A DNA stretch of 43,532 nt from a virus. The position numbers and the translations under genes are program-made. Shown here one piece after another: positions 14,675 through 43,532 of the stretch (positions within the stretch are counted from its first letter, which is position 1; every line of letters starts with the position of its first letter). The stretch is taken from positions 1 to 43,532 of IMG/VR virus record IMGVR_UViG_3300033127_000097. One strand, written 5' to 3'. The notes under the pieces are model-generated. The model worked only from the letters and a program-made list of their open reading frames with translations, had not been told where the DNA came from and ran no database searches.

Positions 14675-16228
14675 GTGGTAGCTACCCGCCTGGAGATGCT
14701 CCAGCAAGAAGTCGAATGGCGCAAGTGTGCAAGTTCGGTCGAGTACTTCTGCGAGAACTTCGCCTATATCGAGCATTCGGATCCGACGAAGGGTGCGATT
14801 AAGTTCAAGCTGAGACCTGAGCAGCGCGACGTTATGGAGACGTGGTCGCGGGGTCAGGACACGATCAGTTTGAAGGCCCGGCAGATTGGCTGGTCGACGT
14901 CAGTGTGCGTGTTCTCGCTGCACCGTGCGATCTTCTTTGCGCCATCGAGGATCTTGATGCTGTCCAAGAAGCAGGACGACGCACGGGATCTCGTGGACAA
15001 GTGCCGGTTCACGTACGAGCGGTTGCCTGAGTGGATGCGGGAGCGGTGCCGTCGCACCAATCGTTCGGTCGACTCGATGAAGTTTGACAACGACTCGAGG
15101 ATCGAGGGGCTGCCATCGAAGAAGGACCCTGCCCGTTCGAAGTCGGCGTCGATCATTGTCCTCGACGAGTGGGCGTTCTATGACGACCCGGAGAATGCGT
15201 GGGCGTCGATCGAGCCAGCGATGGATGTGGGTGGGCATTGCATCGCCTTGTCGACGGCTAATGGTGCCGGCAATTTCTTCCACCGGTTCTGGAAGCAGGC
15301 GGTGGCGGGGGTTAATGGTTTCAAGCCGCTCTTCTACTCGTGGCGGGTCGTACCTGAGCGGGACGACGAGTGGTACGAGAACAAGAGAATGAAGATGGAG
15401 CCTTGGGCGTTGGCTCAGGAGTATCCGAACAATCCTCGCGAGGCGTTCATCATCTCTGGCTCGCCGGCGTTTGACGTCGAAGCGCTGATGGCCACCGATC
15501 ACGAGGAGTATCAGCGTGGATGGCTGCACGAAGAGGCAGACATGATGAAGTTCACCGAGGCCCGCAACGGTGACGTGCACATCCTTGAACATCCGAGGGC
15601 GCATGGAACGTATGTGGTCGGCGCCGACGTCGCTGCCGGCAGGGCGACTGGCGATTTCAGTTGCGCACAAGTGCTCGACGTTGAAACTGGCAGGCAGGTT
15701 GCGCGCTGGCACGGCCACATCAACGTGGATCAGTACGCAGACGAGCTCTACCGGCTGGGTACCTACTACAACAGCGCCTTGATGGCACCCGAGCGAAACG
15801 GTGTTGGGGGTGAGCTGGTCAGGATCTTGCGGTCACGTGGCTACACGAACATCTATCGGGAGGCGAGGCGCACCCGCGGCCGCACCGATGTCGAGGAGAC
15901 GTACGGCTGGCTGACCACTGCAGGTTCGAAGTATGCGATCGTAATGGGCTTGACCGAGGCGATCCGTGACGGTTCGCTAGCGGTCACTCACGAGGCGACC
16001 CTCAATGAGTTGATGAGTTACCGGCACACGAAGAAGGGCACGTTTGAGGGCGACCCTAACGATGACGAGGTAATGGCGATCGGCATTGCGTGGCAAGTAC
16101 TGCCGCTGGCCAGGCCCTCGTGGTTTGATAGAGAAGATCGAAATGAGGACCGGGACCCATTTAGGGCCAGTGAAGTGTTCGGGACGAGTGCCCGACGTAC
16201 GACTAGGAAGCGGATTGGTGCAACATGA
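14675..16228 (+). CDS. terL: Terminase large subunit
   Basis: Walker A-like KARQIGWST, Walker B IIVLDEWAF and the nuclease-domain motif VGADVAAGRATGDFS are present. It is ATGA-coupled to the portal gene. GTG start at 14675, with an alternative ATG at 14696. Confidence 0.85.
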   Translation: MVATRLEMLQQEVEWRKCASSVEYFCENFAYIEHSDPTKGAIKFKLRPEQRDVMETWSRGQDTISLKARQIGWSTSVCVFSLHRAIFFAPSRILMLSKKQDDARDLVDKCRFTYERLPEWMRERCRRTNRSVDSMKFDNDSRIEGLPSKKDPARSKSASIIVLDEWAFYDDPENAWASIEPAMDVGGHCIALSTANGAGNFFHRFWKQAVAGVNGFKPLFYSWRVVPERDDEWYENKRMKMEPWALAQEYPNNPREAFIISGSPAFDVEALMATDHEEYQRGWLHEEADMMKFTEARNGDVHILEHPRAHGTYVVGADVAAGRATGDFSCAQVLDVETGRQVARWHGHINVDQYADELYRLGTYYNSALMAPERNGVGGELVRILRSRGYTNIYREARRTRGRTDVEETYGWLTTAGSKYAIVMGLTEAIRDGSLAVTHEATLNELMSYRHTKKGTFEGDPNDDEVMAIGIAWQVLPLARPSWFDREDRNEDRDPFRASEVFGTSARRTTRKRIGAT

Positions 16229-20532: not shown

Positions 20533-20574
20533 GGGGCACCCGGACGCGGACCTCTACCGCCTAGCCACGACAGT

Positions 20575-20600
20575 GGAGGGGAAGGGAAACCTTCCCCTCC
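20575..20600 (+). terminator. Perfect 11-bp stem with a GAAA tetraloop after the head genes (attenuator, processing or stability element)
   Basis: ggaggggaagg-gaaa-ccttcccctcc lies in the only sizeable intergenic gap of the late block. No U-tract follows. Confidence 0.4.
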
Positions 20601-20619
20601 TGGCAGGAAGGACGACACA

Positions 20620-21417
20620 ATGTCGGGTATCGACTGGACCTACGGACAGGTCCGAAACTACGTGCAGGGTTCTGGCTGCACACGTGGCGACGATCGAATC
20701 GAAGTCATGATGATCGCATGCCTTCAGGAGATCTGGACAGAGGTGTGCGACGACCCGCACTACGCACACACCGAAACCGTTGACCTAGCCGCTGGCAACA
20801 GCGAGGTCGACATTGCCATTTTTGGTACCGTGTCCAGCGTCAAGATGAACTACGGCGATGGGCTGTGTCGCAAGCTCAGCCTTGCCACCGACATCCCAGA
20901 GTTCAAGTCCTGCGGCTGCAAGTCCACTGACGAGACGTGCGATCACGGCACCGGGACACCTGACGCATTCGAGATAATTGGCGACACGCTCACGGTGACG
21001 CCTACGCCCGACGAGGACGTGACCATCGAGCTGACGGGCTACAAGGAGGTGGACTGCACCCTGTTCGACGTGGTCGATGACGTGCGCGTGTGGCGCAGCG
21101 TCGACCTGCCCCAGCGTTACCAGACTCAACTGGCAAACCTCCTGCTCGCCAAGTTCTACGCGGAGGAGGGCAACTTTGCTGCGAGCACATTCTGGGAACA
21201 GAAAGTTTCGACCGGTCTCGTGTCGCTCCTCGACAAGCGCAACAACCGGTACTCCGACGATGGCGGCAAACCTAAACAGCGCGGCATCGAGCACAAGTTG
21301 ATCCGCCGGGGCAGCGACAAGGAGTGCCGCGAGTACGACGACTGCTGGAACCCCGGCATCGTTCAGCGCATCGAAACCACCGTCACGGTCGACTGCTATG
21401 GAGACCCTGTCGAATGA
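20620..21417 (+). CDS. Virion structural protein in the adaptor / tail tubular A position (265 aa)
   Basis: Called only from synteny with the T7-type order portal-scaffold-capsid-gp11-gp12. Cys-rich. Confidence 0.5.
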   Translation: MSGIDWTYGQVRNYVQGSGCTRGDDRIEVMMIACLQEIWTEVCDDPHYAHTETVDLAAGNSEVDIAIFGTVSSVKMNYGDGLCRKLSLATDIPEFKSCGCKSTDETCDHGTGTPDAFEIIGDTLTVTPTPDEDVTIELTGYKEVDCTLFDVVDDVRVWRSVDLPQRYQTQLANLLLAKFYAEEGNFAASTFWEQKVSTGLVSLLDKRNNRYSDDGGKPKQRGIEHKLIRRGSDKECREYDDCWNPGIVQRIETTVTVDCYGDPVE

Positions 21418-23276
21418 GCGACATCCAAGGATTGGTCTTCGGTGTTGGCACTCGAGAACCGGTCACATCTCAGCGCCCCATCTCTCGATTGCCGATCGCG
21501 AATTTCCTTGGCGGGTTGAACCTGGCGCGTGCCGACGCTCAGCTTTTCGACAACGAGTCGGGAGACATGTGCAACGTCGACGCTGGACTGTCTGGCGGAT
21601 TCTGCCGTCGGCATCCGGTGCGGCTGCACACCCGCGAAGACCTCGACGCCCAGATCGTGAGTCTTGGCCAGTGGCAGGACGTTGATGGCAACGCGATCCT
21701 CTACATGATCCTCGAGGACGGCACCGTCTGGTACACCGAAGGTGGAGCTCCGGCCGACGCCACGCCAACGCAAGCCTCGTGGGATGCTCCGAGCTCGGAG
21801 ATGATCCAGATTGGTTTCACTCAGTACTTCTATGGCACCGACCAGGATGCGGTCGCAGTGGAGGGCGGGCCGACCGGAACGGTCGGGACATTGCCGTGGC
21901 AAACGATCGATGCGCTGCCGGCGTTGAGCCCGGAGTGCGACGGCACGCTGATCGCTGTGGGTTGCGACGATTCCGGCAACCCAAACTTTGACGACGAACG
22001 GGAACTCGTGCGCGGCTTCCCTCGAGCAGAGTGCATCACTGTGCATTCAGACTTTGCGTGGGCTGCGAACGTTGTCGACCCCGACACCGGCGAGCGGCAC
22101 TGCAGCCGCATCTATCGCTCGTTCCCGCTTATCGATTCCAATATTGATGGCAGCGTTTGGGGCTCGTCGGAGTACATCGACGTCGATCCGTTCAACGGTG
22201 ACTGCATCACGGCACTGGTGTCATGCGGCCCGAACTTGTACGTGTTCAAGACGAACTCCGTGTACGTGATCCAGGGTTGGGATGATGCGACTGGCGGCTC
22301 TATCACTCCGGTGCAGATCTGCGCAGATGCCGGCACCATCTCGTGTTCGACCGCAGTGTGCTGCGATTGCTTCGTGTACTTCTGGGATCGTAATGCGGGC
22401 CTCATGAGGATCAATGGCACACAGGTTGAGACAGTGTTCTCGAAGCTGTTCCCACTGATTCAGAAGGGCTGCATCAGGCCTGACGGAATGCCGGCGTTGG
22501 GCTGCTGTAACGGACGGATACACGTTTCGGTTCCGGAGTTTGCCGTGACACCCGAAGACGAGGAGCAGGTGGCCCAGTTGCCTGCGAGCGCCAACACGAC
22601 CACGTATGTTCTGACTCCTGAGACGGAGACGTGGGTCAAGTACACCTACGGCATCGACCGCTACTTGCCGTGGAAGCCTCGTTCGGAGAAGCCTCGGTGT
22701 TTGGCTGCGAGCTCGGTGGGCGGCAACTTTAGTGTGGTCGAGATCGAGCGACCCGGGTACGAGAACTATGGGCTTGACGTCTTCAGTGTGGCCGGCGGCG
22801 GAACTCCCATCGAGAGCTTCTGGCGGTCGAAGTGGTTTGATGGCGGTTCGCCGTTCTCGCGCAAGGATTGGGGCAGGGTGTACATCCTCGCCCAAGCTTC
22901 TCCACCGGAGCGCACCAGCTTCGAACCGACGAGGGATTTCGACCTGGAGGTGACCTATCTCGGCGACTGGAACATTGGCCAGTCGATCGGGTTTGGAACG
23001 ATCGGTTTCTTCGACGATCTGGCTGACGATTCGGTGTCGGTCGATGACTTGGAAATCGTTGAGCTTGGAGGCGAAGCGACTCTAGTGTGTCCACCGGAGG
23101 CGGTGGTGAGCGATGCCACTTGCCCGATTACGAACAGCCGCAAGGAGAAGCAGTGCGGACCCGAACCGACAGCGAAGGCATGCTCCTTCCAAATTGTCAT
23201 TAAGGGTCCGGTCAATAAGCCCTGGTGCGTGTGCGCGCTGCTGCTATCGCTAAGCGAGGAGCCACTGAGACTATGA
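21414..23276 (+). CDS. Virion structural protein in the nozzle / tail tubular B position (620 aa)
   Basis: The ATG at 21414 is ATGA-coupled to the upstream stop. Called from size and position. It contains several Cys clusters (CSTAVCCDC, LGCCNG). Confidence 0.55.
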   Translation: MSDIQGLVFGVGTREPVTSQRPISRLPIANFLGGLNLARADAQLFDNESGDMCNVDAGLSGGFCRRHPVRLHTREDLDAQIVSLGQWQDVDGNAILYMILEDGTVWYTEGGAPADATPTQASWDAPSSEMIQIGFTQYFYGTDQDAVAVEGGPTGTVGTLPWQTIDALPALSPECDGTLIAVGCDDSGNPNFDDERELVRGFPRAECITVHSDFAWAANVVDPDTGERHCSRIYRSFPLIDSNIDGSVWGSSEYIDVDPFNGDCITALVSCGPNLYVFKTNSVYVIQGWDDATGGSITPVQICADAGTISCSTAVCCDCFVYFWDRNAGLMRINGTQVETVFSKLFPLIQKGCIRPDGMPALGCCNGRIHVSVPEFAVTPEDEEQVAQLPASANTTTYVLTPETETWVKYTYGIDRYLPWKPRSEKPRCLAASSVGGNFSVVEIERPGYENYGLDVFSVAGGGTPIESFWRSKWFDGGSPFSRKDWGRVYILAQASPPERTSFEPTRDFDLEVTYLGDWNIGQSIGFGTIGFFDDLADDSVSVDDLEIVELGGEATLVCPPEAVVSDATCPITNSRKEKQCGPEPTAKACSFQIVIKGPVNKPWCVCALLLSLSEEPLRL

Positions 23277-31349: not shown

Positions 31350-31701
31350 CCTTGCGTGGCTTAGGGGTGAGTGCGTCCTGCCAAATTTTCTCAGGTGGAC
31401 GAACGAGTGTAATAGCGCCTGTCCATTCGGGGGCCCACTGATTGACGGTGAACTCGTCTCTGTCGGGATAGTGGAATAGCACGAATGGCTCATCCCGGTC
31501 CCGCATCCAGGTGAGGAACATACGCAGCCATGGTGGCCACGGACTGCCGGCGGCAATAACATCGCAGTCCAGCAACCACTGGTAGGCGAGCAGGACACGC
31601 TTGTACTCCGGCGGCAGCCCCCGACCCGGCCCGACGTCGATGCCACCTTTGGCCATGCGAAACACCTGCGCCGCGTTCGGCATGCTGCCTGTGTAGCTCA
31701 A
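31339..31701 (-). CDS. Hypothetical Trp-rich protein (120 aa), last gene of the leftward operon
   Basis: The TTG start at 31701 overlaps the upstream TGA, with an alternative ATG at 31683. The 3' end overlaps the convergent giant gene by 11 nt. Confidence 0.5.
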   Translation of the reverse strand: MSYTGSMPNAAQVFRMAKGGIDVGPGRGLPPEYKRVLLAYQWLLDCDVIAAGSPWPPWLRMFLTWMRDRDEPFVLFHYPDRDEFTVNQWAPEWTGAITLVRPPEKIWQDALTPKPRKVSS

Positions 31702-33140
31702 CGTCCTGCCAGTCTCGTGAGCACCTTGGCCAAGATGCCAACGATTGCGGTGGGCGTGAAGTCTCTGAGTAGATCGAAGATGATGTCAATCTCGATGGGC
31801 TCGAACTCCTCCTCCGGCTCGTCTGGCTCCTCCGGCTCGTCTGGCTCCAGCATCTTGTCGAGGGATCGGGAGAAGTCAAGGCTGCCGTTGCAATGCATCA
31901 CCCCAAGATGCGAGTCCTCCAGGTTCGAAACCGGGGTGCCGCAGTTCGGGTAGGTGGCGTCGGATACCAGCTGACCATTGGTGCGGCTGACCGCCGCGAC
32001 CACGTCCCCCTTCTCGTGCACGGTCAGCACCTCGAAGAACACGTTCCGATCCCTGTTCATCACGTCATCGCCATCGTTAACGAAGCCCACTTCGATGTCG
32101 GTGCTGTACTCGAGGCCGAACCACGTGAATTTGGAGCCTGCCCGGCGAGCGATCATGCGACGTGCACATGGCTCTCCGTCAACGGCAAGCTCAAGTTCCT
32201 CTGAACCGGTGGCGCCACTAGCTGAGACACTGACGTCCATTGGCCCGTGTCCGCACACGACACCGTTCGGGACGTCGACCGGATACGCGGACTCGCGCAT
32301 TGGGTTCGCATCGTAGACCGCCATGTCGGCGTAGGTCAGTGTCGACTTCGTAGTGGGCTGCCACTCGGCAGTGTTGCCTCCCCAGTAGCTCTGGAAGAGC
32401 AGCGTGTCGATCTGCTGTTCAGCGTTTGGGCCGAGCCAAGCGAAGTCCATGCCGTCGCCATTGAAGAGCCTGCCATCCAAACGCAACACCACGTGGTCGT
32501 CGACCCACGCCTCGAAAAACTGGTTCTCACCCACGCCATAGCCAAGCGTCAAGGTGAACCATTCCCCGAGCGGGACATGCCAGAGACCCTCATCCCCAAT
32601 GCGTCCCATTTCGATGCCGTTGTTACGTCCGTCGTATTGGTACGGGTAAGGGTTGTCGATGCCCTCCTTGCGGAAATTGATCTGCCGTCCGTAACGGAGG
32701 TCGTCACGCACAGCGAGCTCGTAGTCGTAGGCGTACACGCCAATGGTGAAGGCGTCAGCCGGCTCCCAACTCCTACCTGCAGTGTTCACGCCTCGCCACA
32801 TGAGACGTCCGGAGAATCCGAACTCGTCGTGGTTGCCGCCGGTGTGCGGGCCGTTGACCTGACCGTTGCGCCCCGTCGACCCAAGACCCGGCATCTTGCC
32901 GCCCACCGAGTGGGCCTTGAGGTTCTTGCCGAAGTCAAAGTCCTTGGGGAAGAAGCACGAGTACTGCAGCCATAGCTCTTGGTGTCCTTCGGGAAGTGGC
33001 ACTTCGGCGCCTGAGGCGTTGTAGTCGTTGGGGACCGTGGTGTAGGTCATCGTCCCCTCGTCAGAGAAATCCCACTTAGCGAGATCGTTCCAGCGATGAT
33101 CGGGTGCGGGCCCGTTGAATTCGCGAATCGTGTTAGCCAT
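31698..33140 (-). CDS. Polysaccharide lyase (PL14 / Polysacc_lyase-like) with a C-terminal carbohydrate-binding-like module
   Basis: FDFGKN...VGGKMPGLGS...FGFSGRLMWRG...IGVYAYDY resembles the GGKLPGL...FSxRLMWR...Y.Y signature. The C-terminal part contains FVNDGDDVMNRDRNVFFEV, which looks CBM-like. This is followed by a PDEPEEPDEPEEE linker and an amphipathic tail. Strong AAGGAGAG RBS. Confidence 0.6.
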   Translation of the reverse strand: MANTIREFNGPAPDHRWNDLAKWDFSDEGTMTYTTVPNDYNASGAEVPLPEGHQELWLQYSCFFPKDFDFGKNLKAHSVGGKMPGLGSTGRNGQVNGPHTGGNHDEFGFSGRLMWRGVNTAGRSWEPADAFTIGVYAYDYELAVRDDLRYGRQINFRKEGIDNPYPYQYDGRNNGIEMGRIGDEGLWHVPLGEWFTLTLGYGVGENQFFEAWVDDHVVLRLDGRLFNGDGMDFAWLGPNAEQQIDTLLFQSYWGGNTAEWQPTTKSTLTYADMAVYDANPMRESAYPVDVPNGVVCGHGPMDVSVSASGATGSEELELAVDGEPCARRMIARRAGSKFTWFGLEYSTDIEVGFVNDGDDVMNRDRNVFFEVLTVHEKGDVVAAVSRTNGQLVSDATYPNCGTPVSNLEDSHLGVMHCNGSLDFSRSLDKMLEPDEPEEPDEPEEEFEPIEIDIIFDLLRDFTPTAIVGILAKVLTRLAGR

Positions 33141-35471: not shown

Positions 35472-35862
35472 CGAGTTCTCCTTCCGGCTCGGTCATCTCG
35501 CTCACGTCGCGTTCGCCCTCTGCGACGCTGACTTGATGGTCTTGACTACCGTCACCCTTCGCCTTGAAGCGCTTCATGCCGTGCTGATAGCGCGGCGACT
35601 GCATACGCATCTTGACCGCACGCACCCGAAGGATCTGGTGCGGGTAGTAGACGTAACCCTTGCTGACCAGCTGAGCAATGACCCAGTGTGTCATCTTCGC
35701 AGTCTGCGGATCGATGTCGAAACGCGGCGGACCCTCATAGTTGTCGACCAGGGTCATCTCGAACCCGTTGTCGTAGAACTCCAAGGTGACCTGAAGCCCC
35801 TCACTTATGGGAACTTCAGGCGGCTCAAACTCCGCCCCGTTCTCAATGAATATCTTGTGCAT
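35362..35862 (-). CDS. Hypothetical protein (166 aa) whose acidic tail overlaps the resolvase gene
   Basis: A strong AGGAGGAAAG RBS precedes ATG 35862. The frame stays open 110 nt into the next gene. Confidence 0.55.
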   Translation of the reverse strand: MHKIFIENGAEFEPPEVPISEGLQVTLEFYDNGFEMTLVDNYEGPPRFDIDPQTAKMTHWVIAQLVSKGYVYYPHQILRVRAVKMRMQSPRYQHGMKRFKAKGDGSQDHQVSVAEGERDVSEMTEPEGELDGQDAEGEGGQVREGDPEPPVQDSEPDDPESGGIGL

Positions 35863-36823
35863 TACTTTCCTCCTTGGCCTCAGCAAAGGCCCTATCGATC
35901 ATCGACCGGCACACGTCCAACGAAATGAAATCCGGCTTCTGGTCAAGTTGATTCTCCCAAACAGAGACCATCAGAGCGTGCGCCTCATCAAGGTTGTACT
36001 GCGGGTGCGCTGCCAAGAAGTTGGCAAGGTTCCACAGATTGTTGTTCCGACCATCGACCATCCCACCCTCGTGGTAGATCATCTGCCCCTTCACGATGTT
36101 GTGCGCGTCCTGAGTCGCACTAGAAACCTTGACCCTCTTGCCCTCAATCTTCACCTCGCGTCGGGGCGGCGGCTTCTCGTGATATCTCTCAGCCAGCTCT
36201 CGCACTCGAGCTGACGAAACCTGATGCGCTTCGGCGTAGTCAAGGAACTGTTCGAATGAAAGAATCCTGCCGTCGTCGTCGACGCACACCATCCGGTTAT
36301 GCGGCACCCATTTGGCATGATACGGCAGACGTACATAGTTGCCGAGGTTCTTTGAATGGTCAGTGCCGACACGTTGCTTTGGGTTGATCTCCTGACACTC
36401 CAGCGCAGCAGCCTCGTCAACGAGCAGGAGTGCCTTACGCAAGGTGTCCGCCGGCACCGGCAGGTCAAGGAACAGCCACACGTGTCGGCCTTCGCCTGAC
36501 CTCGAGATCTCAATGACGCCATTGAGGCCAGCCCGACGCAGACAGGTCAGTGCGTACTGAGCGTCGACGGCGGGGTCTCCTCGCTTCGAATCGAAATCGA
36601 AGCATCCCCACCATGAATTGCCGTCCTCATCGGCGGCGTAACATCCGACCCCCTCGGCGGTCGGGTCCGTCAGGTGCGCCTGCAGGTGGCCAGGCAGCTG
36701 CCTTGGCTCGATCACAACACTACGCTCACGCCCCTTGAGCTTGGGCTCCGACAACCCAATCCGGTGCTCACGGTTCACGAACAGCCGATAGAACCGCTTG
36801 TAGTTCTCATTCAGCTTGTCCAT
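35843..36823 (-). CDS. Primase-polymerase (AEP family) with a PriCT-like C-terminal domain
   Basis: WWGCFDFDSK (metal-binding DxD) and SRSGEGRHVWLF (sGxGxH) are present. The C-terminal GRNNNLWNLANFL resembles a PriCT domain. AAGGAG RBS. Confidence 0.65.
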   Translation of the reverse strand: MDKLNENYKRFYRLFVNREHRIGLSEPKLKGRERSVVIEPRQLPGHLQAHLTDPTAEGVGCYAADEDGNSWWGCFDFDSKRGDPAVDAQYALTCLRRAGLNGVIEISRSGEGRHVWLFLDLPVPADTLRKALLLVDEAAALECQEINPKQRVGTDHSKNLGNYVRLPYHAKWVPHNRMVCVDDDGRILSFEQFLDYAEAHQVSSARVRELAERYHEKPPPRREVKIEGKRVKVSSATQDAHNIVKGQMIYHEGGMVDGRNNNLWNLANFLAAHPQYNLDEAHALMVSVWENQLDQKPDFISLDVCRSMIDRAFAEAKEESNAQDIH

Positions 36824-37784
36824 CGAAGTCTCCTTCCATTGGGTGCATCATCTCTTGCACCAGCGGCCACGGCTTCATAGCCACCGTTGACGCTTCCCCA
36901 ATGCGATGCACATGAGGGCAAAGGCTCAAGTTGTTCCACTGCTTCAACGCCTTCTCCTTGCTTACCGGGCCACCGAGGTAGGCCCGACCCTGTTTGGCCT
37001 TCATGATGTTGAACAGGATCTCATTGTCCTCATGCGTGCGATCACTAAAGCGCCACACACCAATCGCGCAGCCATCGATCGCTGCCTCGCCTCCCCCGAA
37101 CAATTCGTTGAGATCTGGAGCCGACGGTCGAGTACTACTAGGGCGGCGCAGCTGCGAGATCAGACACCAAACCGACTTCTTGAACTGGCGACACAGCCTC
37201 TTGTGCTCCCGCATATGCACCAGACCGGACACGTTGGAGTCGCCGCCCTCAATCTCAAGGCAGCCAATGTAATCGAACACGATGAGCTCGGCCGGCGCTC
37301 CCCACATGCGCTCCGCCTGATCCACCACAGATGCCACGTCGTCAATGCTCGCCCCGAGCAGGTCGGTATTAGGGATGTGTAACTGCGGGAACCTATCCAT
37401 CACCGTGGTCTCAAGACTCTTCGGCGTGTACTGCGACATCGGATGCTTGAACTCCCGCTTGAGATCAAACGTGCGACGCTTCAACACTGAGGCTGCCAGA
37501 TCAAACATAACGCTCGAGCGATCTTCGTCGGCATGCAGGTAAAGGATTCGCCGGTCGTGGTTCCTTTGAATCATGGTCCTGGTGAGCAACGTCTTGCCGT
37601 GACCAGTGCGGCCGGCAATGACGTTAAGCACACCAGGATGCATGCCTCCCTCAAGGAACTCGTCAAGGAACGGAACGCCAACCGGAAGCGGGTCGCCTTG
37701 CCGTAGCAGCTCCTCGAACTCGCGACGATACGGGCCGTTGCCCTCCCGAATGATCGAGTCGAACTTGTCGAACTTCGAACTCAC
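36807..37784 (-). CDS. DnaB-family / RecA-fold replicative helicase (325 aa)
   Basis: Walker A AGRTGHGKT and Walker B ELIVFDYIG are present, with DnaB C-terminal-domain-like spacing. GTGA-coupled GTG start. Confidence 0.7.
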   Translation of the reverse strand: MSSKFDKFDSIIREGNGPYRREFEELLRQGDPLPVGVPFLDEFLEGGMHPGVLNVIAGRTGHGKTLLTRTMIQRNHDRRILYLHADEDRSSVMFDLAASVLKRRTFDLKREFKHPMSQYTPKSLETTVMDRFPQLHIPNTDLLGASIDDVASVVDQAERMWGAPAELIVFDYIGCLEIEGGDSNVSGLVHMREHKRLCRQFKKSVWCLISQLRRPSSTRPSAPDLNELFGGGEAAIDGCAIGVWRFSDRTHEDNEILFNIMKAKQGRAYLGGPVSKEKALKQWNNLSLCPHVHRIGEASTVAMKPWPLVQEMMHPMEGDFDGQAE

Positions 37785-38479
37785 GTCGGCTTATTGATCC
37801 CAGCTTCCACCAGGTGAAGGTTGGCGACAGCCCATGCCGGTGGAGGTCCGAACTTACTGTGCAAGTAGAGGGTCTGTGGACGCGGCGAGCCCAGCACGCC
37901 CTTCTCAGGAAACCGCTCGTGGCTCACAGCTTTGAAGTCGGGGGCGTCTGTCGACTTGAGGGCGCTGCGAAGATCAATCCAGGCGTCGGGCTCTGTCAGC
38001 AGCATGTACCAGCACTGGTCGACCCAGTCGTTGAGCTCTTCTGGTGGCGGCAGCGGCACTCCCGGCTGACCAGTCTGCAGATCCGGCTCGCCGCTCGGAG
38101 GTACGACATGGTTGCCCAGATGATTCGCCGCCGCCTGCTGAGCAGGTGACGCTGCAGTCGCGAGCGACTGGTCAACCACCGTAGGCATCGTCGCCGGCGG
38201 CGCTGGTATCGGCTGTGGTGGTGCAGCCACCGGTGCGGCGCCAGGGAAGATTTCGACCACCGTCTTCGTGACAGGGTCCTGATTGAACGCCAGCCCAAGT
38301 TCGGTGAAGATCAGTGCCTTAATCTCCCGGTACTGCTCACGGGCAGCCTCGATGGCATCATCAGTTGACGAGCTCAGCGGCACCGAGTAGCGAACAGTTA
38401 TGCCGGCGCTGGCCTTACCGTTCACTTCGACGTCGACCTGCCGTGCGAAGTTGACCTCGAATTCCATTTCATCACTCAT
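37781..38479 (-). CDS. Hypothetical two-domain protein with a Pro-rich linker (232 aa)
   Basis: I chose the internal ATG at 38479, which has a GGAG RBS and overlaps the upstream stop by 8 nt. Confidence 0.55.
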   Translation of the reverse strand: MSDEMEFEVNFARQVDVEVNGKASAGITVRYSVPLSSSTDDAIEAAREQYREIKALIFTELGLAFNQDPVTKTVVEIFPGAAPVAAPPQPIPAPPATMPTVVDQSLATAASPAQQAAANHLGNHVVPPSGEPDLQTGQPGVPLPPPEELNDWVDQCWYMLLTEPDAWIDLRSALKSTDAPDFKAVSHERFPEKGVLGSPRPQTLYLHSKFGPPPAWAVANLHLVEAGINKPT

Positions 38480-38807
38480 TGGGCTCTCCAGTGATCGGGT
38501 TCGGGGCCATCTCCGGCTCGTTCTCATCGGCAGCAGGCTCATAGTTGACGTCAAGACGCAGCCACATCACGCCGTCCGACACGCGCGCCTCGAACTCGCC
38601 GGGCTCAGTGCCAGTCAGTCGACCCGCATTGATGCGGGACGCCAGGCTCGACATGCGGCCACGTGCCTCGTCGGTTTCACCTCGCAACGCAACCCAGTCA
38701 CCCTTCTCCTTCCGGGCCATGTCGAGCAGGGGTGTGTAGTCAGTACGCTTGCGTTTCGCCGGCGGGTCCGGCACTTTGCCTCCCGTCAGGATTGAGAACT
38801 CACTCAT
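38472..38807 (-). CDS. Hypothetical protein (111 aa)
   Basis: ATG at 38807, with an alternative GTG at 38816. It overlaps the nuclease gene stop. Confidence 0.5.
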   Translation of the reverse strand: MSEFSILTGGKVPDPPAKRKRTDYTPLLDMARKEKGDWVALRGETDEARGRMSSLASRINAGRLTGTEPGEFEARVSDGVMWLRLDVNYEPAADENEPEMAPNPITGEPNE

Positions 38808-39636
38808 CTGTTTCACCTTTCCGCATCCAATCGATGCTGTACTTGCGATTCGCGTGATGCTCGCCCATGCATTTGCCAGCGGCGAACGTCTCGCACCACT
38901 TCGGAGAGCAATGCCAGTCGGTTGGCCTCATTGGCCAACGCGGCAGCTCAGCCTCGATAAGGAACGCCAACGACAACGCCTGCGTCACCACCCCATCGAA
39001 GTCACCCTGGTCTCTCGTGACCGTGGCCATTTCCATCGGGTCGCCGCTCTTGGGGAAACGCACGTACGTGAACTCAGGGATCTCTCCGGTGGCTTCACGT
39101 ATGGCCATTGCGTAGATCGTTGGCTGCAGCGAGTACCGCTGCATCTTCCAATGATTCTCCTTGTAGGACTCGGCTGACGTCTTCCAGTCCCACAGCATGC
39201 CGGGCGTGTGATAATCGGGCGTCCCCTGGAACATGATCGTGCGAAATTGATCCTCGTAGGCGACGAAACGGAATGGCTTCTCAATATCGCCGCCGAGAGG
39301 GAAGTGGTGACGCTTGCTCCAGAACGTGGCGACAGTCTTGCGCACGATGAACACTGCCTGGTGAACGTTCTCCACCTGGAGCATGCGGATCTCATGCCAA
39401 TGTTCTTGCACGTACTGCACTGCGATGTCGACGAGCTCGGCCTCGGTCTTGTTGCCGTCAGCCTTTAGGTACTCCTCGATCGACAGGTGTGTGGCCGTAC
39501 CGATGAGCGTCGCGTCGCTGCCCTCAGAGAGCGGCGGGCGCGTGCGCAGCTTTTCGGGACACATGCGTGCCTCGTTCAGATCCGACTGGTGAAAGACGTG
39601 CGTCCAATAGCCGTTACTGTCTTGCGTAGATCTCAT
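38800..39636 (-). CDS. Cas4/RecB-family PD-(D/E)XK exonuclease with a Cys cluster
   Basis: GTPDY...LWDWKTS (D...D-x-K) and QPTIYAMA (QxxxY) are present. An N-terminal Cys (RMCPEK) plus C-terminal CSPKWCETFAAGKC suggest an Fe-S cluster. I chose the ATG at 39636. Confidence 0.7.
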   Translation of the reverse strand: MRSTQDSNGYWTHVFHQSDLNEARMCPEKLRTRPPLSEGSDATLIGTATHLSIEEYLKADGNKTEAELVDIAVQYVQEHWHEIRMLQVENVHQAVFIVRKTVATFWSKRHHFPLGGDIEKPFRFVAYEDQFRTIMFQGTPDYHTPGMLWDWKTSAESYKENHWKMQRYSLQPTIYAMAIREATGEIPEFTYVRFPKSGDPMEMATVTRDQGDFDGVVTQALSLAFLIEAELPRWPMRPTDWHCSPKWCETFAAGKCMGEHHANRKYSIDWMRKGETDE

Positions 39637-39831: not shown

Positions 39832-40092
39832 TCAGCCCCGCAATTTCTTGAACCTCTTCAAGACATCGTTCACCACACCTGAAGGGATGCCCCAATGAAG
39901 ACGCGCCTCCTCCAGGCGAGCAGGAGTGTCGGCGTGAAGCTCCAAGATGGCGTCGGTCATCTGACTTCGAGCCAACGTCAGGTCACGGTACGCAAGCCCC
40001 AGCCTGGTGCGTGCGTCAGCTTCCGAACGAGACGATGTCTCCGGAATCTCCCGAAGTTCCTGACGTCTCGGATACTCCATGTGCTCGGCCAT
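39832..40092 (-). CDS. Hypothetical protein (86 aa)
   Basis: A GGAGAGGGAAG RBS precedes ATG 40092. Confidence 0.5.
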   Translation of the reverse strand: MAEHMEYPRRQELREIPETSSRSEADARTRLGLAYRDLTLARSQMTDAILELHADTPARLEEARLHWGIPSGVVNDVLKRFKKLRG

Positions 40093-40546
40093 TGCTTCCC
40101 TCTCCGACGATTCCCATAGCGATCTCCCGACACAAGTCTAGAAACAGCGCCACCGGCAAATCCTTGGGTGCGACCTCCACCCTTGACACTGCCTGCTGAA
40201 CGGCAAGCTCCACGTCGGCTACGCTCAACGCAGACGGCGCGGGTCCCTCTTCACTCGCCCGAGGTTGGGGCTCGCGCCGTCGCAGATCCTCGATCGCTGA
40301 CACGATGTCGTCAGCCGATCCGCTGTCAGGCTCCAACGCCTCCACGATCCGTGCCCGGACCGTGTGCTGATAGCCGACCTCAGCCATCACCGCCTGACAC
40401 GACGCGTACAGCTCGTTCTCCTCGGCCTTCTGGTTCGCCGACGACATCGCCTGAAAAACTTCGATCCAAGATTCCCTGTCCAAGAACTCAAAGAATCTCA
40501 CTTGAGGGTTGATGCGCGTGTCGTCGTCTGCCGGTATCGGGATCAT
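40016..40546 (-). CDS. Hypothetical acidic protein (176 aa)
   Basis: I chose the ATG at 40546 (MIPIPADDD...). The 3' end overlaps the next gene by 77 nt. Confidence 0.5.
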   Translation of the reverse strand: MIPIPADDDTRINPQVRFFEFLDRESWIEVFQAMSSANQKAEENELYASCQAVMAEVGYQHTVRARIVEALEPDSGSADDIVSAIEDLRRREPQPRASEEGPAPSALSVADVELAVQQAVSRVEVAPKDLPVALFLDLCREIAMGIVGEGSNGRAHGVSETSGTSGDSGDIVSFGS

Positions 40547-40678: not shown

Positions 40679-40963
40679 CTACCCTCCGTGCAAACGCTCG
40701 AAAAGCATTCCTTTCAGCAAAGACAAGCCTTGCACTAGCGTCCCCACGCCCCGAGGGGTGAGAACATACTTGACGCCAGACTCGGCCAGCATTTGGACCT
40801 GGTCGTCGGTCATGCCGTAACTGATGATGCCTCCCGCTTCCACCAGCACCTCGTCGGGTATCAGGGTCAATTGGACCTCGAACGTCTCCGGAGAGGTGTC
40901 AACAATCTCCACGGCCACAGCCGAGATCGCGATCGGCTCCTCCTCGATCAGCTCGTCGCTCAT
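40679..40963 (-). CDS. Hypothetical acidic protein (94 aa)
   Basis: ATGA-coupled to the ku stop. Confidence 0.5.
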   Translation of the reverse strand: MSDELIEEEPIAISAVAVEIVDTSPETFEVQLTLIPDEVLVEAGGIISYGMTDDQVQMLAESGVKYVLTPRGVGTLVQGLSLLKGMLFERLHGG

Positions 40964-41730
40964 GCCGCGCCCTTGGCTTGAGCGATCTGCGCCTCGAGCT
41001 GTGCCATCAGATCCCCCGGCGACGACTCGGCCTCAACCTCCTCGACCACCGGCTCCTTGCCCTCGAGCTTCCGGGCGAGCATTGAGAGCAGCGCATCTCG
41101 ATGAGTGTTCTCGAAGCTGGCATGCTCCCACTCGATCGTCATGCCCATCACCATGTCGTCAGCCATCTCGAGCATCTGGTCGGTTGGCTCCGGCCACGAC
41201 TGCACAGCCGGCTCCCGAACCTCGTCGAACCAGTACAGCTCATGCACGTAGACCCTGGTCGTCGTTGCCCGCAAGACGACGAGGCGCTCGTGCCCGGCCT
41301 TGACGTAGCTGCCCACGCCAACAAGTCCACGGTCTTCGAGCACACGCGCCAGAAGGGTCAGCCCAAGCTCGCCACCCTCACCAGGACCAACTTGATGGGC
41401 ACTCGTGTACAGCGAAGGGTCGATCTCGTGTTTGGGCACGAAGCCAACGAGTTCGATATGCGACGTCTTCAGCGGCTGCACAAGAGCGATCTCATCGGCG
41501 GTCACGTCGACCGTTGAACCGTCGCCGAACTCGTAACGCTTCATCACGTCGGCCTTGCGATCGAGCTCGTCGCCGGTGACCGATGAGACGTACGGCATCC
41601 GGATCCTCTCGCCCGTTGCCTTCTCGATTGTCGAGAACGAAACCTTGTCTTCTCGTGCGTCCACATACATTTTGATGGGGACGTTAAGCATGCCCAGAGA
41701 GATACTCCCGGTCCATGTTGCGCGTGGCAT
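40960..41730 (-). CDS. ku: Ku-like DNA end-binding protein (257 aa)
   Basis: The N-terminus MPRATWTGSISLGMLNVPIKMY aligns by eye with bacterial Ku (MRAIWTGSIAFGLVNVPVKVY). Length and the following blocks (ELVGFVP, DPSLY) are also typical. Start set at ATG 41730, which has an RBS. Confidence 0.9.
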   Translation of the reverse strand: MPRATWTGSISLGMLNVPIKMYVDAREDKVSFSTIEKATGERIRMPYVSSVTGDELDRKADVMKRYEFGDGSTVDVTADEIALVQPLKTSHIELVGFVPKHEIDPSLYTSAHQVGPGEGGELGLTLLARVLEDRGLVGVGSYVKAGHERLVVLRATTTRVYVHELYWFDEVREPAVQSWPEPTDQMLEMADDMVMGMTIEWEHASFENTHRDALLSMLARKLEGKEPVVEEVEAESSPGDLMAQLEAQIAQAKGAA

Positions 41731-41750
41731 TTCATTACCTCTTTCTGTTT

Positions 41751-41806
41751 GGGGTGCAAGTCGCACCGCGAAGCCCACCGACTGCAAGCCGATGGGCAAC
41801 GCGCTA
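41751..41806 (-). promoter_or_regulatory. Conserved intercistronic RNA module, copy A (long hairpin + GGTGC-N5-GCACC hairpin)
   Basis: About 90% identical to copy B. It begins at the TAG stop of the upstream gene and ends about 20 nt before the ku RBS. Confidence 0.6.
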
Positions 41807-42076
41807 CGACTCGATTGGCAACGATTCACCTTGATCCACGTACTTGATGTAAAGATCGTGGTGTCTATCCCCTTGGTCGTCGTCGCCGGTGGCGTGCCCA
41901 TCCAGCCATAGCCTGCGAACATCATCGTCGATGACAGCCATTAGGCGTAGCATCGGTTCGATTTCTGAGCACGCCATCTTTGGGCCAATATCAGCAGCCA
42001 ACCATGGTTCATTCATTGCCTTCACAAACTCGTACGCGGCAGCAACGATCAGTGCCTCATTGTTAGCGCCGCTCAC
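41804..42076 (-). CDS. Hypothetical protein (90 aa)
   Basis: The GTG at 42076 is GTGA-coupled to the clamp-like gene stop. This is the C-terminal part of ORF 41804..42355. Confidence 0.45.
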   Translation of the reverse strand: MSGANNEALIVAAAYEFVKAMNEPWLAADIGPKMACSEIEPMLRLMAVIDDDVRRLWLDGHATGDDDQGDRHHDLYIKYVDQGESLPIES

Positions 42077-42804
42077 CTGGACAGCTCCTTGCCGCGGTCC
42101 ACGTAATCCAGAATCGAGTCCATGTCCTTCATTGCCATCGGCATGGCCAAACCCTCGGTGCGACCGATGCGAAACGAGATCGGGTCTCTCACGCCCGTCT
42201 GACGAAACACGACGGGCGCATCGATCTCGTCCTGTGCAGGCGTAAGCGCTGTGCCGCCGTCCATCTTGGCCAAACGTCCAAGCATCCGCGGCGAAAGCAT
42301 GAAACCCTCTGCCGACCCTTCCTTGTGGTAGCTCCTCGTGAACAGGCTGCGCCACATTGGGAAGTTATCGACATCACCAAGCTGCGCACGATCGAACGAC
42401 GGAGCGACACCCTTATAACCCTCGTCACCCTTGGCCCATGACTCGACACCGATCCAGTCGGCCTCCACAATCACCTTCACCGGCTGGTCACGTTCGGCCC
42501 TCTTCGGCTTGAGCATCTTCACCAGCTTCTCGACATCGATGGCATGAAGGCCGAACGTTTGACGGCCAGCCGGCTGCGGACCACTGCTCGCTACCTTTAG
42601 CCAGTGATCGGCTTCGCCGACCACGGTCACCGTCATCAGATAGCTGTCGGTCGAAACCACAACCCAATCGCCGGACTTGCTGTTGATGACGAACAACGCC
42701 ACGTCAAGCGCCGCGCGCACGCCACGATCTCGCTTAGGCGGCAGCGACTGCAACGCGTTGTGAAGTGCCCGATGGACATCCTCACGTGTACCTGTTAATT
42801 CCAT
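42073..42804 (-). CDS. DnaN-like sliding clamp-related protein (243 aa)
   Basis: WVVVSTDSYLM, DNFPMWRSLF and FMLSPRMLGRLAK resemble the beta-clamp blocks (atDg.RLa, FPdY..vi, f.n..yL.d.lk). It is shorter than a cellular DnaN. Confidence 0.5.
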   Translation of the reverse strand: MELTGTREDVHRALHNALQSLPPKRDRGVRAALDVALFVINSKSGDWVVVSTDSYLMTVTVVGEADHWLKVASSGPQPAGRQTFGLHAIDVEKLVKMLKPKRAERDQPVKVIVEADWIGVESWAKGDEGYKGVAPSFDRAQLGDVDNFPMWRSLFTRSYHKEGSAEGFMLSPRMLGRLAKMDGGTALTPAQDEIDAPVVFRQTGVRDPISFRIGRTEGLAMPMAMKDMDSILDYVDRGKELSR

Positions 42805-42822
42805 GATTGCCTTTCATATTTG

Positions 42823-42902
42823 GGGTGCCAGATGCACCCGAAAGCGCTCCGTCTCGGCCGGTCGGATGGGGCTATGAGGAGACGGAGCGCAATCGGCTAT
42901 AG
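42823..42902 (-). promoter_or_regulatory. Intercistronic RNA module, copy C (12-bp hairpin + GGGTGC-N5-GCACCC hairpin)
   Basis: On the minus strand gcgctccgtctc / gagacggagcgc forms the stem (42890-42844). It is followed by tttc, the short hairpin (42839-42823), ccaaatatgaaagg and the ATG at 42804. Confidence 0.5.
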
Positions 42903-43371: not shown

Positions 43372-43478
43372 ATTTGTTTCCTTCTGTCGTTGGTGGATCG
43401 GATACCACCGCGAGCGCTCACCATTGAAGACCAACGGTGAGCGACGCGCTAGAGCCGATCGGTCCCCTAGTTGCAGTA

Positions 43479-43532
43479 GGGTGCTAGGTCGCACCGCGAA
43501 GCCCACCGACCTAAGCCGATGAGCAACGCGCT
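43479..43532 (-). promoter_or_regulatory. Conserved intercistronic RNA module, copy B (continues into 1-34 across the junction)
   Basis: Same architecture as copy A. It begins at the TAG stop (32-34) of the 32..160 gene. Confidence 0.6.
43500..43532. repeat. Terminal direct repeat, identical to 1-33
   Basis: Exact 33-nt match to the start of the window. Confidence 0.9.

Follow-up and report, generated by a model that had tools for sequence, protein, structure and literature searches.

A bacterial-type Ku without a phage-encoded ligase, conserved in a lineage of podovirus-like phages

What does a Ku protein do for a phage that encodes no ligase to work with it? The question is raised by a 43,532-nt window (the whole stretch analysed here, IMG/VR record IMGVR_UViG_3300033127_000097), which represents an almost complete, circularly assembled podovirus-like genome of ~44 kb with SU10/P22-like head genes. 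The Ku gene lies on the minus strand at 40960–41730 (256 aa from an ATG start, stop codon included), exactly where the original prediction from sequence had placed it. Its reading frame can be extended mechanically to 41925, but every homologue begins MPRATW or MARATW, so the start at 41730 is the right one.

The identity of the protein is clear from several independent profiles. Ku is the sole domain found (PF02735, E=1.3e-27, 97.3 bits against a cut-off of 25; residues 12–189, profile positions 2–190 of 190), and the same Pfam scan gave no match to the Mu Gam family PF07352. The NCBIfam equivalog TIGR02772 Ku_bact is matched almost end to end and above its cut-off (E=5.5e-53, 180.1 bits against 150, profile positions 1–258 of 259), as is PHROG 4873, ‘Ku-like DNA end binding’ (E=7.9e-39), and the Mycobacterium tuberculosis Ku structure 8v53 aligns end to end (E=2e-29, residues 1–250). 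The architecture is the prokaryotic single-domain one (~250–300 aa, without vWA or SAP domains), comprising a Ku70/80 beta-barrel core (~residues 3–190), a helical region and a minimal C-terminal arm. At the level of sequence, these matches confirm a bona fide, full-length bacterial-type Ku, as predicted, and homology predicts a homodimeric ring threading onto dsDNA ends. To call the N-terminal block almost identical to bacterial Ku, as had been done, is an overstatement: 13 of its 20 residues are identical to M. tuberculosis Ku, with overall identity of ~33%.

Ku belongs to a leftward (early, pre-replicative) transcription unit, just upstream of a nuclease–helicase–primase module. A Shine-Dalgarno sequence read from the DNA, AAGAGG (41738–41743, minus strand), stands 7 nt before the Ku ATG, and is preceded by a copy of the repeated intercistronic element module A (41744–41810, minus strand; repeat families D5 and D6, pattern searches). 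Repeat and pattern searches thus agree with the earlier placement of module A directly upstream of Ku (41744–41806). This copy begins at the stop codon of the upstream gene and folds as a long hairpin (−40.1 kcal/mol, z=−4.6), the 3' part of which consists of a small hairpin, GGTGC-N5-GCACC, followed by CCAAACAGAAAG. The small hairpin and its tail also precede Ku in the related contig L020, and in the related contig L004 with a compensatory stem change. Scans for sigma-70 promoters and intrinsic terminators around Ku stayed at chance level, and a reading of the 1538-aa protein as a virion RNA polymerase, with the hairpins as N4-like promoters, found no support in PDB or Pfam.

The search for a ligase partner was negative by every method applied. 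Pfam identified none in ~60 ORFs, covering every plausible gene, nor in a rescan of ORFans at E≤5. In phmmer searches of six-frame ORFs of at least 30 aa, a Ku-adjacent LigD probe reached E=2.8 at best and a Ku-adjacent 277-aa ligase probe E=0.012, on a collagen-repeat frame, while for a third probe, an RNA ligase, there was none among the matches listed. The only occurrences of the KxDGxR ligase motif are in an HNH zinc finger and an off-frame stretch of 56 aa, and precomputed Pfam matches for the available parts of the related contigs L004, L016, L017 and L020 include no ligase. At the sensitivity available (Pfam, motif and phmmer), the claim that the window holds no ligase therefore stands: no ATP-dependent ligase, whether LigD or minimal, was found alongside Ku in the operon or elsewhere in the genome. 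Outside this lineage, the nearest Ku relatives, P0014 (36% identity; contig JGI 3300047160) and P0018 (34%; L023, JGI 3300062768), each lie one or two genes from a ~280-aa ATP-dependent ligase on mobile-element-like (phage- or integrative-element-like) contigs. A ligase partner is thus detectable when present, and its adjacency to these nearest relatives suggests that this branch of Ku is used for joining. The lineage of the window differs from these pairs in having no such ligase. Dependence on a host NHEJ ligase and pure end protection are not separated by these data, and both remain leading readings.

Ku is conserved across a five-member metagenomic phage lineage formed by the window, L004, L016, L017 and L020, at 39–59% identity. 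In the window, L004, L017 and L020 it keeps the same orientation upstream of a fixed series of genes encoding a 176-aa protein, a PDDEXK_1 nuclease, 111-aa and 232-aa proteins, a DnaB-like helicase and an AEP primase-polymerase; the L016 sequence stops right after the 176-aa homologue and shows only the first two genes of this order. The genes immediately flanking Ku are variable. Two more distant relatives have the module without Ku, as judged from all of MW202803 and, for L022, from 2 kb of sequence preceding the module, so Ku is dispensable for the replication module; neither has a known family at the equivalent position. That pattern of loss or gain is what a passenger gene, acquired recently and contributing nothing to the phage life cycle, might leave, yet we consider such an origin very improbable. 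Ku is intact and full length in five diverged genomes, its divergence is similar to that of the neighbouring nuclease (48–50% identity), and it is preceded by a conserved upstream element and ribosome-binding site. Nor is there a close cellular donor: among 185,579 bacterial and archaeal species genomes, identity to Ku was at most 31% over any substantial stretch, and for this reason cellular Ku proteins give no clue to a donor, prophage or host.

The start of a 94-aa ORF (40679–40963, minus strand; ORF list) overlaps the Ku stop by 4 nt (ATGA), an arrangement that suggests translational coupling. This ORF has no Pfam or PHROG match and no BLASTP match in L004, L016 or L017, although in each of these, too, the Ku stop is overlapped by a small gene. 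The 176-aa protein, acidic and predicted to be all-helical (40016–40546, minus strand; 33–51% to L004, L017 and L016 by BLASTP), is kept downstream of Ku in all Ku-bearing relatives; since it is also present in Ku-less L022, it belongs with the nuclease module. AlphaFold modelled this family with low confidence (pLDDT 56), and Foldseek gave no match. The nuclease itself is a PD-(D/E)XK (Cas4/RecB-like) exonuclease of 278 aa (38800–39636, minus strand; PF12705, E=1.7e-10; PHROG exonuclease families), with 48–50% identity to its counterparts in L004 and L017 by BLASTP. Between nuclease and helicase lie two conserved proteins: one of 111 aa (38472–38807, minus strand; PHROG 2660, of unknown function), 38–43% identical to L004 and L017 (BLASTP) and without a Pfam match, and one of 232 aa (37781–38479, minus strand), 49–52% to L004 and L017 (BLASTP) and without Pfam, PHROG or PDB sequence matches.

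The module ends with a DnaB/RecA-fold helicase-like protein of 325 aa (36807–37784, minus strand; PF03796, E=4e-9; weak NCBIfam DnaB/KaiC matches; 55–63% identity in relatives) and, adjoining it, an AEP-type primase-polymerase of 326 aa (35843–36823, minus strand; PF22548 AEP-TOTE, E=1.6e-19; 55–67% identity in relatives). The genome had been said to lack a polymerase, which is correct for family A, B and C domains but overlooks this AEP enzyme and its DnaB-like helicase; no other polymerase-like enzyme is encoded, and phmmer found no similarity between the AEP protein and the LigD polymerase domain. The ‘clamp-like’ gene proposed two genes upstream of Ku finds no support as a clamp. That gene encodes a 243-aa ORFan (42073–42804, minus strand) outside the conserved Ku module, with no clamp match in Pfam or PHROG even at E≤5, only a weak RusA-like PHROG match (E=0.004), noise in a PDB sequence search and no homologue but itself among 5.8 billion proteins. 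It has no counterpart in related phages, shows no similarity to the DUF932 protein that takes its place in L004, and yielded an unusable single-sequence AlphaFold model (pLDDT 33); the genome as a whole produced no clamp.

The constant position of Ku upstream of this module, always in the same orientation in the window, L004, L017 and L020, invites a reading of Ku as an accessory of phage recombination or replication. Ku would then mark or hold ends for the PD-(D/E)XK exonuclease, the 176-, 111- and 232-aa proteins and the helicase–primase, and its role might be, for example, to govern resection or to initiate replication that is recombination-dependent or end-primed; the partner of its conserved C-terminal arm could be a phage protein rather than LigD. 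We think this improbable, as L022 and MW202803 have the module but no Ku, the genes immediately beside Ku vary, and the phage AEP is unlike the LigD polymerase domain, the normal contact of Ku. Nor did an annealase or another known partner of Ku emerge: neither Pfam nor PHROG recognised an annealase or recombinase (Erf, RecT, Rad52 or Sak4 type) in the genome. A lambda-Red-like gam–exo–bet reading of Ku and the nuclease was likewise not supported, no annealase or SSB being recognisable in the 94-, 176-, 111- and 232-aa proteins.

Conservation of the C-terminal arm offers a more direct view of function. The arm (SSPGDLMAQLEAQIAQAK, residues ~236–253) is followed by just three residues (GAA). 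Within it, GDLMAQLEAQIA aligns with M. tuberculosis SDLLAKLEASVK, the conserved motif of the minimal region being DLxxxLxxS; D250 and L251 of the M. tuberculosis protein are kept, D247 is replaced by S and S258 by Q. The stretch SPxDLMAQLEASIAAAK is nearly invariant in the five phage Ku proteins, despite overall identities of 39–59%, and no stretch outside the core is better conserved. [quoted passage not shown] A protein acting purely as a cap would accordingly have little need of the arm. The basic extended tail is missing from all five lineage proteins, each of which ends within 10 aa of the arm. K/R-rich tails are present in eight of eight more distant Ku homologues, including P0005 and P0006 on phage-like contigs; of the ligase-adjacent relatives, P0018 is short-tailed and P0014 has a ~20-aa Lys-rich tail, in contrast to the tailless window Ku. 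Such tails vary from 1 to 155 aa in bacterial Ku and are typical of it rather than strictly defining.

The original prediction had pointed to the mycobacteriophages Omega and Corndog and to Mu Gam, and these are the right comparisons. Omega (gp206) and Corndog (gp87) are mycobacteriophages of clusters J and O with their own Ku (Pitcher et al. 2006, Mol Cell 23:743). As that study is cited, the phage Ku proteins tested work with host LigD, and the phages are reported to use the ligase of the host (Pitcher 2006); for a phage Ku, going without a phage ligase is thus not unusual. Omega and Corndog resemble the window in having a single-domain bacterial-type Ku and no phage ligase, with Ku in a non-structural, leftward-transcribed region, and Omega gp206 falls in the same PHROG as the window Ku at ~31% identity. 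They differ in being 70–110 kb siphoviruses of Mycobacterium with 4-base 3' overhangs, whereas the window is a ~44-kb podovirus-like genome with a T4-like terminase. Omega gp206 also has a ~45-aa extended tail with an RGRIP motif, which we take to be Lsr2-like, whereas the window Ku stops three residues past the arm. The requirement for host LigD was demonstrated for Omega and Corndog and may extend to the window Ku by analogy. Cellular NHEJ Ku proteins (M. tuberculosis 8v53/9i91, B. subtilis YkoV) align over the full length and share the core and minimal arm; the window protein differs from them in being virus-carried, without an adjacent or genome-encoded LigD and without the basic extended tail.

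Phage Ku of the bacterial type has so far been documented only in actinobacteriophages. We found it in 53 of 50,697 phage records, all Mycobacterium phages, plus one unannotated faecal fragment, and the 11 viral Ku proteins in OrthoDB are all from actinophages. Mycobacteria and Streptomyces carry LigD, and the confinement of Ku to phages of such hosts suggests that its benefit to a phage depends on host NHEJ. What is new in the window is a Ku conserved in a podovirus-like lineage unrelated to mycobacteriophages, with a nearly invariant arm and with mobile-element relatives that have a small ligase.

The ends on which this Ku might act can be approached through packaging. The large terminase is of the T4-like type (14675–16228, plus strand; PF03237 Terminase_6N), with best tblastn matches in MW202803 (37.6%) and then in T4-like and jumbo myoviruses (28–32%), and the genome assembled as a circle in two samples, with overlaps of 33 nt and 141 nt. 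Terminase type and circular assemblies lean towards headful packaging of terminally redundant DNA, though they do not in themselves establish the ends. The original prediction saw in Ku a hint of linear virion DNA; tailed phages in general package linear DNA, so this says little, and the features above point to a headful mode, unlike the 4-base cohesive ends on which the mycobacteriophage model is founded. Logan contig breakpoints, considered as physical genome ends, were rejected; they coincide with ~78-nt module A direct repeats that are longer than the assembler k-mer.

Relatives of the capsid infect Bradyrhizobium, Rhizobium, Stenotrophomonas and Myxococcus (Proteobacteria plus Myxococcus); among these genera, records of Ku exist for B. 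japonicum and R. leguminosarum. A marine macroalgal surface sample is the source of at least one relative. tRNA and Rfam scans of the genome were empty, cultured phages contained no near-identical DNA, and searches with Ku or AEP peptide patterns returned no IMG/VR relatives. The endolysin has a single phage relative, in a Brevibacterium phage; with 29% identity, this match is too distant to point to a host.

Our best explanation, to which we assign a little less than an even chance, is that Ku rings, once loaded on the ends of phage DNA, have these joined by a LigD-type ligase of the host. Ku would load onto the ends of the linear DNA of the phage, whether those of the injected genome or those created by host nucleases or replication, and hold them together; through the minimal C-terminal arm, an ATP-dependent ligase of the LigD type would be brought in from the host to seal them, giving recombination-independent circularisation or re-joining of the phage genome. 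As long as Ku is bound, nucleases of the RecBCD/AddAB type would also be denied access to the ends. This would amount to the Omega/Corndog mechanism transferred to an unrelated podovirus-like lineage that is probably headful-packaging; we infer the recruitment of a host ligase, the choice of ends joined and the presence of LigD in the host. The equivalog-level, full-length match to NHEJ Ku, the conserved arm and the activity of tested phage Ku proteins with LigD argue for joining, as does the inclusion of Bradyrhizobium and Rhizobium, genera with species in which Ku is recorded, among the hosts of capsid relatives. With no annealase or recombinase recognised, the phage has no evident route of its own to circularise terminally redundant DNA. 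Against joining, headful, terminally redundant DNA needs it less than 4-base cohesive ends do, the main direct LigD binder of M. tuberculosis Ku is absent from all five proteins, and the module relatives MW202803 and L022 do without Ku. NHEJ is, moreover, only sporadically distributed across bacteria (PMC7719229), which weighs against joining together with the marine macroalgal origin of at least one relative.

Mu Gam shields linear DNA from RecBCD. Gam (PF07352), a phage DNA-end-binding protein called ‘Ku-like’ in the literature, is a possible functional analogue of the window Ku, although it is a much more diverged and shorter relative. Ku could similarly be a stand-alone cap that blocks RecBCD/AddAB loading on injected, replicating or concatemeric DNA with neither ligation nor host NHEJ, and might also block end-sensing defence systems. 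We rate this somewhat less probable than host-assisted joining, and at odds below even. It is consistent with the lack of any ligase in the genome and with the position of Ku ahead of the replication genes in the early unit, end-protection genes being expected among phage early genes. Given the T4-like terminase and the circular assemblies, the DNA should have many free ends that are non-cohesive and need no cos joining; many bacteria are without NHEJ; and the basic extended tail, the main contributor to direct LigD binding by M. tuberculosis Ku, is missing here. A further metagenomic phage-like contig, L006, has Ku among the anti-defence-type genes ArdA and Acb5, and Ku without LigD is thought to bar recombination or resection machinery from ends (PMC7719229, discussion). 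The near-invariant arm, however, goes unexplained if the ring alone matters; a generally useful cap should be widespread in phages of all hosts rather than confined to Mycobacterium phages among 50,697 records; and the Ku-less relatives have no known anti-RecBCD gene at the Ku position that would indicate functional replacement.

One form of end protection would accommodate the arm. It is conceivable, if rather doubtful, that this podovirus-like lineage, probably of Gram-negative and possibly marine hosts, has domesticated Ku as a ligase-independent cap and re-used the arm for a partner other than LigD, which would be a phage protein, a host nuclease or a defence factor. If so, the lineage would represent a second, independent origin of the ‘Gam’ strategy, and Ku would be usable in hosts without NHEJ. 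The single phage Ku mechanism tested is tied to 4-base cohesive ends and mycobacterial LigD, and a ligase-less Ku conserved in small podovirus-like phages, unrelated to the mycobacteriophages and equipped with a headful-type terminase, extends the phenomenon. The lineage is thereby a natural system in which to ask if the basic task of phage Ku is to recruit a ligase or to protect ends, for which the invariant arm provides a precise handle for mutagenesis. The pairs of Ku and minimal ligase on mobile elements suggest that portable two-gene end-joining modules are circulating, which bears on the horizontal spread of NHEJ. In a cluster look-up, ten near relatives of the window Ku were all located on short metagenomic contigs.

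The Ku gene lies on the minus strand at 40960-41730, with 256 codons, an ATG start and an AAGAGG ribosome-binding site 7 nt upstream. Its open reading frame (ORF) can be extended mechanically to 41925; the shorter coordinates of the original prediction are correct because all Ku orthologues start at MPRATW or MARATW and the extension crosses a conserved intergenic element. The protein matched Pfam PF02735 across the entire 190-position profile (E=1.3e-27), the NCBIfam equivalog TIGR02772 ‘non-homologous end joining protein Ku’ over positions 1-258 of 259 (E=5.5e-53, scoring 180 bits where the curated cut-off is 150), PHROG 4873 ‘Ku-like DNA end binding’ (E=7.9e-39) and the M. tuberculosis Ku structures 8v53 and 9i91 over residues 1-250 (E about 1e-29). 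These matches bear out the predicted assignment, and by every available sequence test the protein is a bacterial Ku. The N-terminal block, its most recognisable stretch, was overstated as almost identical to bacterial Ku: 13 of 20 residues are identical to M. tuberculosis Ku, and overall identity is about a third.

The window is a podovirus-like phage genome. Structural genes occupy the plus strand at about 3.6-31.3 kb, an arm encoding a T4-type large terminase, a P22/SU10-like portal, an SU10-like major capsid protein and adaptor, an SLT-domain internal protein, a 1538-aa protein, a collagen-like fibre, a PAP2 protein and an amidase; non-structural genes fill the minus strand at 31.3-43.5 kb, running on into 1-3.5 kb. 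Because the first and last 33 nt are identical (1-33 and 43500-43532) and a 44,375-bp ENA contig with the same Ku (L001) spans the junction, the window is an essentially complete, circularly assembled genome. From the coordinates, the full circle measures 44,234 bp (44,375 minus a 141-nt k-mer overlap). Comparison of the window ends with L001 7497-8198 shows that the window is missing ~735 bp of the ENA contig between two ~78-nt direct repeats of an intercistronic element, module A. This segment contains only 52-aa and 131-aa ORFs without a Pfam match; either recombination between the repeats deleted it naturally, or the assembly took a short-cut. The collagen-repeat fibre (7788-9521, plus) and PAP2-family phosphatase-like gene (9518-10357, plus) of the structural arm, and a polysaccharide lyase 14 with a CBM60 module (31698-33140, minus) ending the leftward non-structural unit, may have receptor-, capsule- or envelope-related functions and are potential host clues.

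Pfam scans of about 60 ORFs, comprising all plausible genes and many in alternative frames, with the ten largest ORFans rescanned at E<=5, showed no DNA ligase (ATP- or NAD-dependent), RNA ligase or LigD domain. When all stop-to-stop ORFs of at least 30 aa in six frames were searched using phmmer, a LigD-like protein adjoining a bacterial Ku (L014) gave a best E of 2.8, a 277-aa ligase adjoining a mobile-element Ku (L023) gave 0.012 (10 bits) in a collagen-repeat frame, and the RNA ligase of a distant relative gave none among the matches listed. The KxDGxR ligase motif occurred only in an HNH zinc finger and a 56-aa off-frame stretch. At the sensitivity of profile searches, the original view that the genome has no ligase or LigD therefore stands. 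This absence, which covers one complete genome and parts of four relatives' contigs, is real and not a detection failure, because partner ligases of the nearest Ku relatives outside the phage lineage were readily detected. Two mobile-element-like contigs encode a ~280-aa ATP-dependent DNA ligase one or two genes from Ku: P0014 (36% identity; JGI 3300047160) has Ku, a 74-aa gene and a ligase with DNA_ligase_A_M and OB_2 domains, and P0018 (34% identity; L023 1244-4891) has DUF3560, Ku, DUF3987 and a ligase, with a tyrosine integrase further on. These arrangements look like portable two-gene end-joining modules, and a partner ligase is common in this Ku branch.

Two further predictions concerned replication genes. 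The supposed lack of a polymerase holds for families A, B and C and fails for an AEP primase-polymerase at 35843-36823 (PF22548, E=1.6e-19), whose gene overlaps that of a DnaB-like helicase. The proposal of a clamp-like gene near Ku was not borne out: the 243-aa product matched no family, found only itself among 5.8 billion proteins, had no counterpart in related phages and yielded an unusable structure model. The idea probably echoes Corndog, in which a beta clamp lies near Ku.

Alignment to M. tuberculosis Ku includes the ‘minimal C-terminus’ (window GDLMAQLEAQIA versus SDLLAKLEASVK), with D250 and L251 kept. SPxDLMAQLEASIAAAK is almost invariant in the five phage orthologues, preceded by a freely varying linker, and all five proteins end within 10 residues past it, whereas more distant Ku homologues have K/R-rich extended tails (8 of 8). 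Omega gp206 (L009 2998-3846), unlike the window lineage, carries a tail of ~45 aa that includes an RGRIP motif (…IRTWAKAQGFKISARGRIPKDIVDKYEGAMA); this extension presumably resembles the C-terminal DNA-binding domain of Lsr2. The minimal region is conserved among bacteria and is enough for LigD interaction in B. subtilis and P. aeruginosa and for stimulating ligation in M. tuberculosis, whereas the extended tail, 1-155 aa long, restricts DNA binding and, in M. tuberculosis, adds to direct LigD binding (PMC9638933). Judged against that description of both regions, the phage proteins, with the arm kept and the extended tail absent, look like natural ‘Ku-min’ proteins.

In a tblastn search of 50,697 sequenced phages, the only relatives of this Ku came from Omega-like Mycobacterium phages (32.5% identity or less) and from a single unannotated faecal fragment; a 2025 survey counted 11 viral Ku proteins, all from actinophages. 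An exhaustive HMMER scan of metagenomic protein collections returned 5,992 relatives, of which P0012 and P0013 (both 40% identity) came closest beyond the query's own cluster, and a word-indexed search of metagenomic proteins returned P0002 (59%). No close cellular donor was present among 185,579 species genomes. Elsewhere, one short metagenomic contig (L018 588-2203) carries two adjoining Ku genes (262 and 274 aa, one 35% identical to the window Ku) that may form a heterodimeric prokaryotic Ku. A phage-like contig of 65% G+C (L006 5660-12016; also L007) encodes a Ku with a basic tail (29% identity) among small genes including ArdA anti-restriction, Acb5 and a pyrimidine-dimer excision enzyme, a neighbourhood that looks like an early or anti-defence type.

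The five Ku-bearing related genomes, the window included, have G+C contents of 57-60%; L020 was found via a neighbouring 176-aa protein family and the other relatives via Ku, and L004 came from a marine macroalgal surface sample. Their shared order runs from Ku through a handful of variable small genes to the 176-aa family, a PD-(D/E)XK nuclease, proteins of 111 aa and then 232 aa, the DnaB-like helicase and the AEP primase; L016, a short contig, stops right after the 176-aa homologue. Across the lineage, identity is 39-59% for Ku and 48-50% for the nuclease; this about equal divergence implies comparable constraint on Ku, whose conservation makes a functionless passenger gene very unlikely. 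No Ku was found in the 2 kb upstream of the module covered by contig L022, nor in MW202803 (‘Podoviridae sp.’, complete, 42 kb), which has the same nuclease-helicase-primase module, is, judging by terminase and portal, the window's nearest relative in the cultured database, and matches the window in its head and replication modules. With five related genomes bearing Ku and two more distant module-bearing relatives lacking it, Ku is an accessory gene, acquired once and then retained in a sub-lineage. Its fixed synteny with the module would suit a Ku serving the phage's own nuclease-helicase-primase machinery, but the module also occurs without Ku, and we consider this role improbable. One gene of MW202803 (L019), at 20569-21669, specifies an OB-domain RNA ligase (PF09414, E=1e-15) that has no window counterpart. 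The 176-aa protein (window 40016-40546, minus) is acidic and predicted to be all-helical. It matched nothing at family level, in the PDB or by Foldseek, and a search of 5.8 billion proteins found just six members; its gene lies upstream of the nuclease in 6 of 6 related contigs, including the Ku-less L022, although in some of these one or two small ORFs intervene.

The identity of Ku, the lack of a phage ligase and the conservation of Ku and its C-terminal arm in the lineage are firmly established. From homology we infer a Ku ring on DNA ends. In the reading that we rank slightly first, at a little short of an even chance, Ku would bind DNA ends and a host ligase would join them. This is favoured by the pairing of the nearest Ku relatives with ligases and by the lack of a recognisable annealase or recombinase in the genome to circularise terminally redundant DNA. 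Bacterial-type Ku in sequenced phages is confined to phages of actinobacterial hosts, and such hosts carry LigD, so the benefit of Ku apparently depends on a host pathway. Cultured capsid relatives, a weak host indicator at 24-30% identity, infect Bradyrhizobium, Rhizobium, Stenotrophomonas, Myxococcus, Ruegeria and Brucella, and records of Ku exist for B. japonicum and R. leguminosarum at least. A stand-alone, Gam-like end cap is a less probable but still credible role: the T4-like terminase and circular assemblies suggest headful packaging and many non-cohesive ends, the extended C-terminal tail is missing, Ku lies in the early operon, and NHEJ is sporadic across bacteria (PMC7719229). The invariant arm, a further reason for ranking joining first, is hard to explain for a mere cap, because the M. 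tuberculosis C-terminus limits DNA binding; this functional argument from C-terminal conservation draws on three model bacteria. Host-dependent joining and capping share end binding as a first step and are not mutually exclusive.

As a phage gene, the window Ku groups with Omega gp206 and Corndog gp87, which likewise lack a phage ligase. Those phages have 4-base cohesive ends and depend on host LigD, whereas the indirect evidence on the ends of the window genome leans the other way. The protein falls outside the Mu Gam family (Pfam); it probably works like, and by sequence is, bacterial Ku. A known gene in a known ligase-less arrangement is now found in a new virus lineage, probably with different genome ends from Omega and Corndog and probably with a non-actinobacterial host.

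Copies of module A lie ahead of Ku, the 243-aa gene and a 121-aa gene on the minus strand of the window (41744-41810, 42819-42854 and 43476-43532 continuing into 1-33) and at L001 7443-7520 and 8177-8254; two Logan contigs (L002 and L003) break at this ~78-nt repeat. When folded as RNA, the copy ahead of Ku forms a long hairpin (-40.1 kcal/mol, z=-4.6), and its 3' part, just ahead of the ribosome-binding site, holds a small hairpin, GGTGC-N5-7-GCACC, followed by CCAAA(A)CAGAAAG. Ahead of its Ku, L020 has this small hairpin and tail too, L004 has them with compensatory changes in the stem (GGTGTC/GACACC), and L017 has another strong hairpin in that position. Possible roles of module A are promoter, processing site and stability element.
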